From: a virus
Taxonomy: Duplodnaviria > Heunggongvirae > Uroviricota > Caudoviricetes
Direction: 5' to 3' (one strand)
Length of the DNA: 37,860 bases
IMG/VR virus record: IMGVR_UViG_2541047762_000007
The notes under the pieces are model-generated. The model saw only the letters and a program-made list of their open reading frames with translations, made no database searches and was not told the DNA's origin. The translations under genes and the position numbers were made by a program. Positions 2,812 to 35,357 of this stretch are shown here, in pieces; position 1 is the stretch's first letter, and each line of letters starts with the position of its first letter.

Positions 2812-4398
2812 TCACGCCGCCCTCACGATATAGTTAAATGCGATATTGCGGGGGCGAGCTGATACATAAGCCCACCAGTCATATCTTTGTGCACCTTTAG
2901 AGGATGCATCAAATATCCACTTTTTGCCATTTATGACCCCCAGTTGATTAGAGGTTAAAGCGTCACCAAATCCGTATTGTGTAGAGCCGAGCGAACTGAT
3001 ATCTCCGGTATTATTATCATCAAAACCGGATACGATAGTCCCTTCCTGAAATGAAAGTACCGTACGCCCGGTATCAACCTTGCGACCACCGTCCCATCCA
3101 CGGATAAACTCACCGCGCAAATCGGGAAGACGGAGGGTCGGGTAGACTCTGGCCAGAACAGGATATTGTTCTTTGGTGAACGTAGCTCCGTTGCACTGTA
3201 ACCAGCCTGCTGGCGGTGTGGCGGTGGGCCATGGAACCGGTACACCAACAGGCAATGCAGAGCCTTCCCCCAAACCAAGGTAATTGAGGACATCTTTTAT
3301 ACTGCCCTTAGCGATAATAGCGCGACCAATAGCTGTAAGGGTTGCCAGCGCTGCGCGGTCTGCTCCGGTAAAATAAGGCAACCGATCTGCTGCAGTGGCA
3401 AGTCCTGCCAGAGCAGTGAGCGTGGCATCTGCCGGTTGTTTTCCGTTTGCCAGATCGTATGCAGCCTTGACGGCCTTTGGTGTGGCGGCCAGCGTTTCAG
3501 ACGTGCTGTTGATGGCGCTGCTCAATTGTACGGTGCCTTTTGCCGTCAGCGAGGCAGCAGGCACTCCCGTTATCTGACTCCACGGGTGAGTGTGGCTGAC
3601 GGGCGCCTTGCCGGCTGCAAGGTCGTATGCAGCCTTGACGGCCTTTGGTGTGGCGGCCAGCGTTTCAGACGTGCTGTTGATGGCGCTGCTCAATTGTACG
3701 GTGCCTTTTGCCGTCAGCGAGGCAGCAGGCACTCCCGTTATCTGACTCCACGGGTGAGTGTGGCTGACGGGCGCCTTGCCGGCTGCAAGGTCGTATGCAG
3801 CCTTGACGGCCTTTGGTGTGGCGGCCAGCGTTTCAGACGTGCTGTTGATGGCACTGCTCAGTTGTACGATCCCTTTACGGGTCGTTGTTGCATCCTGGGC
3901 TGTGTATTTTCCCCGGGCCAGATCATACGCGATTTTCACAGCCTTCGGCGTGGCAGCCTCAGTTTCTGATTGACTGTCCGTGGCACTGCTCAGCTGTACG
4001 GTGCCTTTTGCCGTCAGCGAGGCAGCAGGCACTCCCGTTATCTGACTCCACGGGTGAGTGTGACTGACGGGTGCCTTGCCGGCTGCAAGGTCGTATGCAG
4101 CCTTGACGGCTTTTGGTGTGGCGGCCAGCGTTTCAGAGGTGCTGTTGGTGGCACTGCTCAGTTGGGTGAACCCCTTAGCTGTCAGTGTCGCGTCCGGGTG
4201 GTTACGGGAACGTACGTGTTCAGCCAGTGACTGTGCGGCTTCCTCCGTTTTTTTCTTCAGCCATTTCGTCCTGTTTGCCAGTTGCCGGGGGGCTCGATTT
4301 GATATCCCGTCTGCACCACCCAGAACCGGATCTGATGTCTCCAGTTGATAGATATTTTCTTCCCACTTTTCTGTTTCATTCAGGTTTCCCATAATCAA
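2812..4398 (-). CDS. Tail fibre protein with internal tandem repeats
   Basis: 528-aa ORF with repeated fibre motifs (TAKGTVQLSSAxxSTSETLAATPKAVKAAYDLA, SHTHPW). C-terminal part lies inside the invertible segment. Position matches Mu S. Confidence 0.9.
   Translation of the reverse strand: MIMGNLNETEKWEENIYQLETSDPVLGGADGISNRAPRQLANRTKWLKKKTEEAAQSLAEHVRSRNHPDATLTAKGFTQLSSATNSTSETLAATPKAVKAAYDLAAGKAPVSHTHPWSQITGVPAASLTAKGTVQLSSATDSQSETEAATPKAVKIAYDLARGKYTAQDATTTRKGIVQLSSAINSTSETLAATPKAVKAAYDLAAGKAPVSHTHPWSQITGVPAASLTAKGTVQLSSAINSTSETLAATPKAVKAAYDLAAGKAPVSHTHPWSQITGVPAASLTAKGTVQLSSAINSTSETLAATPKAVKAAYDLANGKQPADATLTALAGLATAADRLPYFTGADRAALATLTAIGRAIIAKGSIKDVLNYLGLGEGSALPVGVPVPWPTATPPAGWLQCNGATFTKEQYPVLARVYPTLRLPDLRGEFIRGWDGGRKVDTGRTVLSFQEGTIVSGFDDNNTGDISSLGSTQYGFGDALTSNQLGVINGKKWIFDASSKGAQRYDWWAYVSARPRNIAFNYIVRAA
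3061..3290. repeat. Right inverted repeat of invertible tail-fibre segment (gix-like site at 3265..3290)
   Basis: Reverse complement matches 1674..1889. TTCCCCCAAACCAAGG at 3265..3280 is the inverted partner of the left site. Confidence 0.7.
3440..4200. repeat. 168-bp (56-aa) tandem repeats within tail fibre gene
   Basis: Three near-identical units are in register at ~3455, 3623 and 3791, followed by two more diverged units. The plus-strand shadow ORF 3436..3969 shows the same period. Confidence 0.85.
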
Positions 4399-7352: not shown

Positions 7353-8503
7353 TTTTTCTTCTCCTTAATCACCGTCGATGTACTGCCATCCGGGTGATAA
7401 ACCGTGAGTTTCTGAGTTTTTTGTTTTTTCCCTCTTGTGACTGGCCCCCGTGCCACTTCCAGCTCTGTGGTGTAGCCGCTGTTACGGTCAAACGCATGGC
7501 GGGCAGTGGTTATGAGCCATGGCCCGGATAACTGCCCAAAACTCACCAGTTCAATTTTGTTGCCTGCTGTCAGTTGAGGTGTTCCCGTCAGCGTCAGGGA
7601 GCCGTTCTGCTGGTATTCGTTATGTCTGGCCAGTGCTGAATCCGCTTTAATCCGGGCACTGTCCGGGTCGCTGACGCGGCTGTTAACTTTAAGTGAGTCA
7701 GCGCTGGTAACCTTACCACCTTTGAGCTTTTTGTCGCTTTCACGGGTACCACCATCAGCTTCGTAGACGATCAGTTTTTTACTGCTGCTTTTCTGGTGTT
7801 TTACCTTTGCAGATTTATAGACCCGGTTGATGGTGTCACGCAGGGAAAAGCGGGCCACATCCTGCGGTTTTAACTGCCTGACCGGCTCCTGACTGCGCAG
7901 TGTGGCCAGATGAGAAAAAATCAGCTGGTCACTGACCACTTTCACTGCATAACCATACTCGCTGGCCAGCCGGCGCAGAAAACCCACGTCGGTTTCAGCA
8001 TACTGGGTCACCCGGTCGATTCTGATGGACTCAATGCTGCCCACCAGTTTCAGCCGGTGCTTTCTGGCAATCCGCCCCGCAACAGCTGCCAGCGTGGTGT
8101 TCTCAAAACCACGACTGGTTTTAGTCCGCAGGGCACTGTTAACCGAGGTGGCCACCCCACGGATAGAAACAACGGAAGCGGGCGAACTCACTTCGATCTC
8201 GTCTATAGAGAACGTACCGCAGGACAGCAGCTTCTCGCCCTGATAGCCCATTTTCAGCGTCAGCGTGTCACCCTTGCCCGGATACCATTTATCCAGCCAG
8301 CGGCCATCGGTGTCGTCCAGCTCCACCTCAATGGTATCGGACTCATTTTTGATGTTATCGCTCCAGGTCACACGGGTGACATAAGGCGCGATATCAGAGG
8401 TGATGTTTTTCTGCAGATACCACAGAGTGAACACCGGTGTCAGCACATCGCTGACGCCGGTTAACGCTGATGTGACTTGCGCAGTGCTGTTTATCTCAGC
8501 CAT
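7349..8503 (-). CDS. Baseplate hub / late control D-like protein (Mu gp44-like)
   Basis: 384 aa, position downstream of tape measure and upstream of the spike gene. Confidence 0.75.
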   Translation of the reverse strand: MAEINSTAQVTSALTGVSDVLTPVFTLWYLQKNITSDIAPYVTRVTWSDNIKNESDTIEVELDDTDGRWLDKWYPGKGDTLTLKMGYQGEKLLSCGTFSIDEIEVSSPASVVSIRGVATSVNSALRTKTSRGFENTTLAAVAGRIARKHRLKLVGSIESIRIDRVTQYAETDVGFLRRLASEYGYAVKVVSDQLIFSHLATLRSQEPVRQLKPQDVARFSLRDTINRVYKSAKVKHQKSSSKKLIVYEADGGTRESDKKLKGGKVTSADSLKVNSRVSDPDSARIKADSALARHNEYQQNGSLTLTGTPQLTAGNKIELVSFGQLSGPWLITTARHAFDRNSGYTTELEVARGPVTRGKKQKTQKLTVYHPDGSTSTVIKEKKK

Positions 8504-28721: not shown

Positions 28722-29179
28722 CTTCTCTTGGTATTTTTGTTCATTATTCCACCTGTTCCTATGGTTACGTTACCTTTGATAACATTCCCCAGAACATCTC
28801 CATGAATAACCTGTTCCGCCCGTTCTCTGGAGGAGCCAGTAGTCAAGGCCGACAAAACTGAACCTTTGACCTGTAATGGTGCCTGCCGGTAGTGCTGCAG
28901 TAACTCCATTTCATCACGTGATAAAGTTATACCTGATGACTCCCCGGTAAGAATGAACTGTACATTGGCCCCAATTCTTGCAAAGGCTGCAAGTAACTCA
29001 CCTCCGGGAACAGCAACCCCTCGTTCATATTTCCCCCACATTTCTCTTGAAACGCCACAAAGGGCTGCTACTTCAGCCTGCTTGAGTGATAACCGCGAAC
29101 GCTCAGCTTTGAACCGCGACGCGCAAAGAGAATCAAAATTCACATAAACCTCATTGACAATGAGAACAATAGTTCTCAT
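28718..29179 (-). CDS. XRE/Cro-C1-type HTH repressor (immunity repressor candidate)
   Basis: HTH segment LSLKQAEVAALCGVSREMWGKYERG; divergent from the early operon. True start may be the GTG at 29143, since operator-like palindromes cover 29150..29179. Confidence 0.75.
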   Translation of the reverse strand: MRTIVLIVNEVYVNFDSLCASRFKAERSRLSLKQAEVAALCGVSREMWGKYERGVAVPGGELLAAFARIGANVQFILTGESSGITLSRDEMELLQHYRQAPLQVKGSVLSALTTGSSRERAEQVIHGDVLGNVIKGNVTIGTGGIMNKNTKRR

Positions 29180-29182
29180 AAT
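29150..29182. promoter_or_regulatory. Operator-like palindromes overlapping early promoter
   Basis: Perfect palindromes CTCATTG-A-CAATGAG (29150..29164) and ATGAGAAC-AATA-GTTCTCAT (29160..29179). Consensus -35 TTGACA at 29154..29159 and CATAAT at 29177..29182 with 17-bp spacing, facing the Ner/Cro-like gene. Confidence 0.6.
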
Positions 29183-29229
29183 CTATCACATATAAAACAA
29201 ACATCATTGCATCAACAAAGGAGACAACA

Positions 29230-29418
29230 ATGACTTCCGAACAAGTTAAAAATCTCTTCCGTCAGCGTGGTATCACGTTTACCCGCTGGGCCGAAGAACA
29301 CGGCTACAGCCGCAATGAGGTCTATCGTGTTCTCAATGGACAGACCAAAGCTCGTTACGGCAAAGCCCATGAAATTGCCGTAAAACTGGGATTAAAACCC
29401 ACGTCAAATGCGGCATAA
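29230..29418 (+). CDS. Ner/Cro-like small DNA-binding early regulator
   Basis: 62-aa basic protein, first gene of the rightward operon, divergent from repressor; SD AAAGGAGA upstream. Confidence 0.65.
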   Translation: MTSEQVKNLFRQRGITFTRWAEEHGYSRNEVYRVLNGQTKARYGKAHEIAVKLGLKPTSNAA

Positions 29419-33656: not shown

Positions 33657-33926
33657 ATGAAATCCACCGCAGGTATCAACCAGCAAATCAGCAAAGTGCA
33701 GTCAGCCATTATGGCGCTTAAGGCGACGAACACGGATGTACAAAGCATCACCATCAGGGGGAACAAACCTGTCATCCGCGTTTCCCGGAGTGCGCATTGC
33801 ATGCGCATGCTTGAGCAGGGAAAGGCCTGTTATCTGTATACCGGACATGACCACAGGGGATATTTCCGTCAGGGCGTTTTCGAACTGCACGGCTGTCGCG
33901 TCGTGTGGCCGGAATCTTTGTGGTAA
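33657..33926 (+). CDS. Hypothetical early protein (Kil-like position)
   Basis: 89-aa ORF between B and gam. Confidence 0.45.
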   Translation: MKSTAGINQQISKVQSAIMALKATNTDVQSITIRGNKPVIRVSRSAHCMRMLEQGKACYLYTGHDHRGYFRQGVFELHGCRVVWPESLW

Positions 33927-33953
33927 TCAGCACAACCGGAGAAATCATAAAAT

Positions 33954-34484
33954 ATGGCAAAAAGTACAAAAGGGGCAAAACGTATCAAGTCCGCAGCGGC
34001 ACTCTGGGTACCGGGGACACGCGAAGAGGTCATTGAGGGCATCAGACTGCTCGGTGACGCACAACGTGAACTGGTCAGGGCTGAAACAGAAATGAATGAC
34101 GCCATTGGCGATATCACCGCACGTTATGCCCCGCTCACCGAGAGCCTGAAAAAACGCATGGCCGAACTGCAGTCCGGTATTCAGACATGGTGTGAGGCAC
34201 ACCGTGATGAACTGACCGGCAACGGGAAGGTGAAGTTCGCTAACCTCACCACCGGCGAGGTGCAGTGGCGAAACCGTCCGCCATCAGTCAGTATCCGTGG
34301 GGCGGATAATGTTATTGAATTACTGAGACGTCTGGGGCTTGAGCGCTTTATTCGTGTAAAAGAGGAAATAAATAAAGACGCTATCCTGAATGAAAAAGAG
34401 GCCGTGAAAAATATTCCCGGTATTTCCATTAAAAGCGACATTGAGGATTTTTCAATAATTCCTTTTGAGCAGGATGTGCAGTAA
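33954..34484 (+). CDS. gam: Host-nuclease inhibitor Gam (Mu Gam-like)
   Basis: Translation closely matches Mu Gam as I recall it (AKRIKSAAA...EMNDAI...WCEA.RDELT..GKVK.ANL.TG.V.WR.RPPSVSIRG...GIEDFSIIPFEQ). Confidence 0.9.
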   Translation: MAKSTKGAKRIKSAAALWVPGTREEVIEGIRLLGDAQRELVRAETEMNDAIGDITARYAPLTESLKKRMAELQSGIQTWCEAHRDELTGNGKVKFANLTTGEVQWRNRPPSVSIRGADNVIELLRRLGLERFIRVKEEINKDAILNEKEAVKNIPGISIKSDIEDFSIIPFEQDVQ

Positions 34485-34526
34485 ACACACCACGTTAATT
34501 ATTTAATAAAAACATTTTCTTTTTTA

Positions 34527-34563
34527 TTCCGGCGTCAGCGCCGTGGGCTTCTGCACGCCGGAA
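34527..34563 (+). promoter_or_regulatory. Stem-loop downstream of gam, preceded by an AT-rich tract
   Basis: 9-bp stem TTCCGGCGT/ACGCCGGAA with a 19-nt loop, preceded by a T-rich/AT-rich tract (34490..34526) and followed by the SD of the next ORF. Confidence 0.4.
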
Positions 34564-34581
34564 ACAGAGGAGAATTAAATT

Positions 34582-34776
34582 ATGATATTTAAATGTATTC
34601 AGTGCGAGAGGGATATAACAGCCCTGCGTTTTCACAGCGCCATCGCCGTGATGTCCGGTAAATACCACATCCCTGCGGTACGCGTCACCCTGGTCTGCCC
34701 GTACTGCAGCCAGCATTTTTCGGCAGATGTGCCCGTCATGGAATTCTCCCGCCCTGACAGGGAGGACGCGCAATGA
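34582..34776 (+). CDS. Small zinc-ribbon-like protein
   Basis: 64 aa with CxxC (CIQC) and CPYC pairs; SD GAGGAG upstream. Confidence 0.5.
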   Translation: MIFKCIQCERDITALRFHSAIAVMSGKYHIPAVRVTLVCPYCSQHFSADVPVMEFSRPDREDAQ

Positions 34777-35045
34777 TTACCCCACAGGAAGCACGACAGC
34801 GCACCCGAACTCTTGTTGAACACTATGTCAACGAGTGTGAATGCCGCGACCTCACCGATGTGAAGCACGTCCTGACGGCGCTAATCAGCATGGCCACGCA
34901 GGCCATTGTGGCAACCAACGGAAAGGAGGCTGCCCTGCAGGTACTGATGAACACACTCACCCACACGGCAGAGCACGAGGTGCCGTACCGGGTGGAAACC
35001 ACTGCAGAAGGCGGCCTGAACATCACCGTCGACCGGAAACACTGA
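34773..35045 (+). CDS. Hypothetical early protein
   Basis: 90-aa ORF with ATGA overlap to the upstream gene. Confidence 0.45.
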   Translation: MITPQEARQRTRTLVEHYVNECECRDLTDVKHVLTALISMATQAIVATNGKEAALQVLMNTLTHTAEHEVPYRVETTAEGGLNITVDRKH

Positions 35046-35054
35046 GGGCGCGGC

Positions 35055-35357
35055 ATGACACGGAACACCGAACTCACCCGCACCGCCCTCTACCGTCTGG
35101 CCCTGCAGCGTTTCGGGCCGGACGCACAGGCCCTGAAACTGACAGAAGAGGCCGCTGAACTGGCGGCCAGTGCCGCCCGCAACCTGAACGGACAGGGCAG
35201 CGAAAGTGACCTCGCGGCAGAGCTGGCAGACGTGGAAATCATGACAGAGCAGCTGCGCCTTCAGGGAATGGACCGGCTGATTGACTTCCACAAACGGAAA
35301 AAACTGGAACGCCTTGCCGCACGGCTGGGCGTCTCATACACCGGAGAAATCATATGA
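35055..35357 (+). CDS. MazG-like nucleotide pyrophosphohydrolase domain protein (tentative)
   Basis: 100 aa with EEAAEL and ELADVE motifs in the spacing typical of small MazG-like proteins. Confidence 0.45.
   Translation: MTRNTELTRTALYRLALQRFGPDAQALKLTEEAAELAASAARNLNGQGSESDLAAELADVEIMTEQLRLQGMDRLIDFHKRKKLERLAARLGVSYTGEII

Follow-up and report, generated by a model that had tools for sequence, protein, structure and literature searches.

Downstream of gam in Mu-type phages lies what looks like an unannotated, conserved non-coding element of the intercistronic mRNA hairpin kind, in which an AT-rich, G-poor tract is followed by a GC-rich hairpin and then by the Shine-Dalgarno (SD) sequence of the next gene. 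The element is described here from a stretch of viral DNA of 37,860 nucleotides (IMG/VR record IMGVR_UViG_2541047762_000007), termed the window throughout, which is a BcepMu-type, Mu-like transposable prophage of E. coli. We tentatively read the element as a sense-strand processing or stability hairpin between two cistrons of the early polycistronic mRNA of Mu-type phages. Comparison across phages carries the case for its conservation, while its mode of action would have to be weighed against several other readings that are given below together with the evidence bearing on each of them.

The gam-downstream gap and its hairpin

Relatives of the BcepMu-like prophage in the window are carried by 637 of 5,426 complete E. 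coli genomes, and phage PhiKM is 98% identical to it over the queried 33900-35100 region. Its early operon runs on the + strand from a transposase gene through a B-like ExeA ATPase, an 89-aa ORF and gam into a series of small accessory genes that ends with gemA- and mor-like genes. The genes of this operon otherwise overlap or lie at most 27 nt apart, and the sole long gap, of 97 nt, separates gam from the first gene past it, a zinc-ribbon ORF of 64 aa. This makes the gap the only uncoupled interval in an otherwise overlapping, translationally coupled operon. On one side it is bordered by conserved core early genes (transposase, B, and gam or a DUF3164 substitute) and on the other by variable accessory genes. 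The features of the gap and its borders are as follows.

33954-34484, + strand: gam (Pfam Phage_Mu_Gam, E 1e-40)
34482-34484, + strand: gam stop codon TAA, upstream border of the non-coding gap (ORF list)
34485-34526, + strand: AT-rich tract with one G in 42 nt (sequence)
34500-34507, + strand: box TATTTAAT, inside the AT tract
34515-34525, + strand: pyrimidine run TTTTCTTTTTT, inside the AT tract
34527-34563, + strand: GC-rich hairpin (folds, RNAalifold, pair counts)
34527-34535, + strand: 5' arm of the hairpin, TTCCGGCGT (sequence)
34536-34554, + strand: nominal loop of 19 nt (sequence)
34536-38/34551-53 and 34540-42/34546-48, + strand: inner pairs, apical loop GUG (folds)
34555-34563, + strand: 3' arm of the hairpin, ACGCCGGAA (sequence)
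34561-34568, + strand: conserved 3' flank GAAACAGA, overlapping the stem base, GAAWCWGA in Mu-type phages (alignment)
34567-34572, + strand: SD GAGGAG of the zinc-ribbon ORF
34582-34584, + strand: start codon ATG of the zinc-ribbon ORF
34582-34776, + strand: 64-aa zinc-ribbon ORF (ORF list; RefSeq CDS WP_000576352; PHROG 3401, E 1e-40)

Coordinates read off the sequence agree with the anatomy given in the original prediction, namely a stem of 9 bp that closes a 19-nt loop and stands between a T-rich tract on its 5' side and an SD on its 3' side. Inside the nominal loop, CAG/CUG and GCC/GGC can pair and leave an apical loop of 3 nt, and the 3' end of the stem lies 3 nt from the SD. The stem-loop also holds up in folding energy, where both the 53-nt core (-23 kcal/mol, z -3.4) and the 116-nt gap (-31.9 kcal/mol, z -4.25) are more stable than all of their shuffles (0/200 in each case). 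A 9-bp stem alone is not unusual by chance, as the window holds 5 perfect ones against 3.0 +/- 1.7 expected from Markov simulations, and it is the context and the conservation of this one that exceed chance. No other GC hairpin in the window has a G-poor 5' flank of 89% A+T, and the element occurs there as a single copy. Of all 42-nt windows in the whole stretch, 0.04% contain no more than one G.

Some further observations concern the surroundings of the gap. The last ~160 nt of gam (34320-34484) are already AT-rich, with 32-40% G+C against ~55% elsewhere, so the AT-rich island reaches into the gam coding region. In the GenBank record of PhiKM, a minus-strand CDS is drawn across the region corresponding to window 34495-34773 (L001 4596-4817); this is probably a mis-call, because RefSeq and PHROG 3401 (E 1e-40) back the zinc-ribbon ORF on the + strand. 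A coding role for the gap itself was considered and rejected, with no conserved small ORF found on either strand, and Pfam and PHROG searches of the neighbouring genes returned no candidate RNA-binding protein. Elsewhere in the window, the only other G-depleted stretch is 29140-29232, a likely early promoter/operator with a perfect TTGACA and then a 20-bp palindrome (ATGAGAACAATAGTTCTCAT), situated between a leftward repressor-like ORF and a Ner-like ORF of 62 aa. At 3578-4150 there are three near-identical units of ~70 nt, each with a hairpin GGCTGCAAGGTCGTATGCAGCC (stems at 3613, 3781 and 4081), which look like a repeated coding segment.

The hairpin had been put forward as a possible intrinsic terminator between early sub-operons, and on this point the prediction fails. 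The element is not an intrinsic terminator because neither strand has a U-run 3' of the stem: the + strand continues as AAACAGAGGAG and the - strand as AATAAAAAAG (also given as AAUAAAAAAG), with no T-run in either, and the T-run that does exist lies 5' of the stem. The hairpin is stable and GC-rich, and two distant Mu-like loci (L345 and L347) do have a canonical terminator-like hairpin, AACCCACTTATTAGTGGGTTGTTTT, directly after gam in place of the element. However, a consensus scan for terminators was negative both in the window and at the homologous site of Mu, the nominal loop measures 19 nt (3 nt at the apex once the inner pairs form), and essential distal early genes, mor among them, must be read through the site. 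The gam-downstream element does not terminate transcription, and a Rho-independent terminator or attenuator that divides early sub-operons is extremely improbable. The idea of a boundary survives in an evolutionary sense, in that the element borders conserved core genes on one side and mosaic accessory genes on the other, but not as a site of termination.

Conservation across phages and independence from flanking genes

Loci encoding relatives of Gam were fetched and the sequence 3' of each stop codon was read. At least eight diverged lineages, one of them comprising Mu, D108, SfMu and the Yersinia Mu-likes, and together spanning 58-100% Gam identity, have the same arrangement of a stop codon, an AT-rich, G-poor stretch of 22-56 nt, a GC-rich hairpin, and 13-26 nt to the next start codon. 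The distance from hairpin end to start codon and the hairpin stability (-13 to -26 kcal/mol) stay within these limits in all lineages, and the hairpin sits 4-15 nt upstream of the following SD. The stems themselves vary from lineage to lineage (TTCCGGCGT, TTTCGGCGT, ACCGGCGT, AATCCGGCGT, GGCGCGA, ATTCGGCGC and GCCTGCCGGG; the same list is also written UUCCGGCGU, UUUCGGCGU, ACCGGCGU, AAUCCGGCGU, GGCGCGA, AUUCGGCGC and GCCUGCCGGG), and each of them is self-complementary.

Substitutions within the stems follow the pairing. Among 20 distinct sequences of the class-1 hairpin, 97% of cells are paired and three pairs are compensatory (RNAalifold, pair counts), and the covariation score of 0.155 exceeds both the shuffles (0.096; 0/500) and all slid controls. 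To judge from these alignments, the GC-rich hairpin is evidently kept by selection for base pairing. One-sided changes in the stem yield G.U more often than A.C (12:5 in class 1, 7:1 in class 3), and since they are mostly G.U on the + strand, stem evolution points to the transcribed + strand RNA as the favoured form over duplex DNA or antisense RNA; of the three hairpin classes, two show this preference of wobbles for the sense strand. The base-pairing signal is not clean, given that A.C mismatches interrupt the stem in common E. coli variants and take its stability from -20.7 to about -14 kcal/mol, and that the inner helix of class 2, the Mu-type hairpin, is unsupported on the + strand.

Conservation extends beyond the hairpin. 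The AT tract is conserved in primary sequence throughout lineages A-H, and it is evidently kept G-poor. Conserved motifs comprise the ATTTAAT boxes in the tract, GCGTCA (GCGUCA) and GGGCTTCTGCAC in the hairpin, and the GAAWCWGA flank. Within lineages, third codon positions of gam are roughly three times as diverse as the gap (0.094 against 0.02-0.03, and 0.204 against 0.06-0.09), and because of this difference the whole unit of ~85 nt is evidently under purifying selection, regardless of the flanking genes. Searches for a known counterpart returned little. In Rfam nothing came near a gathering score, the best matches being snoRNA psi28S (22 bits, threshold 44) and the PyrC leader (20 bits, threshold 50) at E 0.9-8; a loose scan of IMG/VR with a flank-only pattern gave mostly random AT-rich matches, the true ones being the known A and D types only; and a literature search, including literal sequence strings, found no paper that mentions the gam-downstream site.

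Phage Mu itself carries a homologous element at AF083977 6326-6423 (L106 2327-2424), with an AT tract and a GGCGCGA...TCGCGCC hairpin. It occupies the 98-bp gap between gam and gene 11, which is unannotated and reads ...TATTTAATTAATTCACATTCTTTTAATTAT GGCGCGATACGTCAGGAGATTGCTCGCGCC TGAAACAGA... Mu has a second long early gap, before gemA, and this one is built alike (L106 4150-4235, which is Mu 8149-8234, and L078 ~4976), its AT-rich tract leading into the GC hairpin GGCGGTG-TTGCAG-CACCGCC and then the SD. In relatives whose gam overlaps the next gene, the element is absent. Further early-operon gaps of related phages (L424 ~3184; L423 ~2141) follow the same order, with the SD preceded by a GC hairpin and this in turn by an AT-rich tract, which suggests a recurrent design where translational coupling breaks.

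The gene on either side of the element can be exchanged. In 32 distinct IMG/VR variants a DUF3164 gene fills the gam slot upstream of a retained element, and in such phages the AT tract begins at the stop codon of the DUF3164 gene, as in the BcepMu-like prophage of E. coli AF22 (NZ_OZ547223; L444 2381-3070). On the downstream side, at least four unrelated genes follow the element in Mu-type phages. The original prediction had set the element immediately ahead of the zinc-ribbon ORF, and while the position is right, with the SD directly after the stem, a specific link to this gene is not borne out: the association is incidental, because the zinc-ribbon gene is present without the element in Dickeya- and Brenneria-type relatives and the element also occurs without the zinc-ribbon ORF. 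Across the loci compared, the element thus behaves as an autonomous unit, independent of both flanking genes. A scan with the class-1 hairpin found it in 81 viral contigs, and E. coli genomes have 1-3 element places each, every place examined (by annotation or sequence) lying in a Mu-like prophage. E. coli S10EC (L445 2237-3020) carries an IS1B copy at the very 3' terminus of gam, directly upstream of the element, and both the element and the genes beyond it are intact.

This mosaic setting is what a conserved recombination joint would offer, with homologous exchange inside the element shuffling core and accessory modules and any role in expression being secondary. In Mu-type phages, diversity rises from 0.06-0.09 across the element to 0.42 just 3' of GAAWCWGA, i.e., a mosaic junction lies immediately 3' of the element (0.06 to 0.42); a second junction, marked by the alternation of gam and DUF3164, lies immediately 5'; and the tract is near-identical between Mu-type and DUF3164-type phages despite much more diverged genes. 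Lambdoid linker sequences are comparable in this respect, and the PeSL cassettes of T4 are likewise conserved non-coding stem-loop cassettes at junctions of variable accessory ORFs that mark mosaic boundaries. Unlike PeSLs, however, the element is present in one copy per genome, has no recognisable promoter consensus and resides in temperate transposable phages. Exchange also leaves the compensatory stem changes, the G depletion and the fixed distance to the SD unexplained, and it is compatible with a function in expression and hence not a true alternative to one. We hold it very unlikely that recombination is the chief reason why the element persists.

DNA-level, elongation and translational readings

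The strong conservation of the AT tract at the level of primary sequence would also suit a DNA site, either a weak or regulated internal promoter, in which the AT boxes would stand for the -35 and -10 elements and the inverted repeat for a discriminator or operator, or a site for a host nucleoid protein. Pairs of TTTAAT-like boxes 16-18 bp apart are seen in several lineages, the second adjoining the hairpin, and the similarly built pre-gemA gap of Mu is annotated as a "semi-early promoter" in its GenBank record. However, consensus scans picked up no sigma-70-like site at the element or at its Mu counterpart, and the best hexamer pairs match 6-9 of 12 positions, lack A-11 or T-7, and are not conserved in position in lineages B, C, F and H. 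A -10 box abutting the hairpin would moreover place the start inside the 5' arm and yield transcripts without that arm, which conflicts with the RNA-type G.U and compensatory changes of the stem. Matches to the IHF and CRP consensus are, by eye, not conserved, and the tract has no motif in common with the early operator of the phage. A repressor operator at the element was rejected on this last ground. We therefore hold a promoter or other DNA-level site to be unlikely.

A second group of readings concerns transcript elongation. The G-poor tract could serve as a Rho entry site and the hairpin as a pause signal, a Rho-dependent attenuation by which mor and other distal genes would be held back, or the element could be an antitermination site of the nut or ops type. 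The gap of 97 nt is untranslated, its C/G ratio is 7 between the stop codon and the hairpin and 1.5-2.2 over 78 nt, and CACCAC follows the stop codon in lineages A, D and E. As a rut site, however, the tract would be poor, with only 15-17% C over about 42 nt. The lambda nutL site is laid out as a pyrimidine box, an AAUUA spacer and a GC hairpin. The layout of the element resembles it, and like nutL/nutR (boxA-boxB) and the RNase III site of the N leader it combines a pyrimidine-rich box, a short AU spacer and a GC hairpin upstream of the next SD in an early transcript. Unlike in the lambda sites, boxA (CGCUCUUUA) is not conserved, being matched at no more than 5 of 8 positions in lineages A and D and at 7 of 8 only in two F variants. 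The hairpin is also far larger, with 30-38 nt and an interrupted stem of 7-12 bp against the 15-nt boxB with its 5-bp stem and 5-nt loop, and no N-like protein was identified by Pfam and PHROG among the neighbouring genes. A site for RNase III, about 20 bp of coaxial helix, differs as well, in that the Mu-type helix has 7-12 bp and the window attains ~25 bp only with an unsupported lower stem. The GGCG..AGCG of the hairpin recalls the RfaH ops element GGCGGTAGnnTG, which acts in the non-template strand, but GGCGTCAGCGCC mismatches it at G5, T6, T11 and G12, positions that RfaH needs. Control of elongation by Rho or by antitermination thus has a low probability in our view.

At the level of translation, the 5' pyrimidine tract may pair with the 3' SD while the hairpin acts as a clamp, so that translation of the first accessory gene would stay low unless this structure opens. 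Both the MFE and the centroid structure of the window do pair 34514-23 with 34566-75 and thereby cover GAGGAG, the predicted probability of the SD being unpaired is ~0.01, and some tract/SD pairing can be drawn in every lineage. This pairing, however, does not stand out from controls. Pairing a tract with its cognate SD gives -5.56 kcal/mol, no improvement on the -5.86 of non-cognate pairs taken from other lineages. The mean z against composition-matched shuffles is -0.07 and that of the window -0.95, and only some 5 of 12 MFE folds, that of Mu not among them, contain the lower stem. Several coupled genes of the same operon are equally low in predicted accessibility. As modelled, the pairing between the U tract and the SD in the window is that expected generically of a U-rich flank and a purine-rich SD, and a universal anti-SD role for the tract is unsupported. 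The window fold resembles fourU and ROSE thermometers, and the translation-inhibition structure of Mu com-mom, in that a U-rich strand pairs with the SD beside a stable helix; unlike in those systems, control sequences pair just as well and the interaction lacks conservation. We consider a translational attenuator of this kind doubtful. Com-like control by the zinc-ribbon ORF was rejected separately, since in comparison with Com the ORF reaches E 0.11 and matches only in the CxxC motif, and ORF and element are unlinked.

Proposed role in early mRNA and its meaning

A processing or stability site in the mRNA, which the original prediction had listed among its options, is the best fit to the anatomy of the element. 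A G-poor, AU-rich segment (89% A+T), putatively single-stranded, lies beside a stable stem-loop, which is the combination expected of an RNase E site with a 5' stabiliser. In the processing and stability model, the unstructured AU tract would be the entry site of an RNase E-type endonuclease, and cleavage would leave the distal message with the hairpin at its new 5' end or within a few nt of it. There the hairpin would protect the distal mRNA and provide a fixed structural context for the first uncoupled ribosome-binding site, so that stability and translation of the accessory genes could be set independently of the transposition genes. RN|WUU-like motifs (AC|AUU) are found 12-16 nt 5' of the stem; any AU-rich tract would contain motifs of this type by chance.

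Among the closest known systems are processing sites between cistrons that carry a stabiliser hairpin, as in E. coli papBA, and 5' stem-loops of the ompA type. There too an AU-rich single-stranded segment lies beside a stable stem-loop in a polycistronic mRNA, with the hairpin just upstream of the distal ribosome-binding site, and differential expression of proximal and distal genes would be expected. The element differs from them in a primary sequence conserved beyond the usual needs of such sites. REP/BIME sequences, as in malE-malF, are also GC-rich imperfect palindromes in an intercistronic gap and the element could, like them, block 3' exonucleases; unlike them, it has no REP consensus, occurs once per prophage and only in Mu-like prophages, and includes the AT tract as part of the unit.

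The strong conservation of primary sequence (ATTTAAT boxes, GCGUCA, GAAWCWGA) is left unexplained by the processing-hairpin model. Tract and hairpin motifs are conserved beyond what a spacer and a clamp would need, which may hint at a sequence-specific partner. Along this line, the element could be an exchangeable punctuation cassette common to the otherwise distinct Muvirus and BcepMu-like prophages, whose motifs are read by a specific host factor, which governs polarity within the operon, be it by way of Rho, by antitermination or by timing the access to mor, and which doubles as a recombination joint that drives the shuffling of accessory genes; we think this combined reading quite unlikely.

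Should its function be simple mRNA stabilisation, the element would be an ordinary one. Mu is a textbook system, and yet its gap between gam and gene 11 has stayed unannotated. Accessory modules are exchanged at a junction that the element locates exactly, which helps in the annotation and engineering of Mu-like prophages. If it does set the expression of accessory genes relative to transposition genes, it would add a post-transcriptional layer to the early/middle/late cascade of Mu, one that concerns semi-essential accessory genes, including some that affect host physiology, and ultimately mor.
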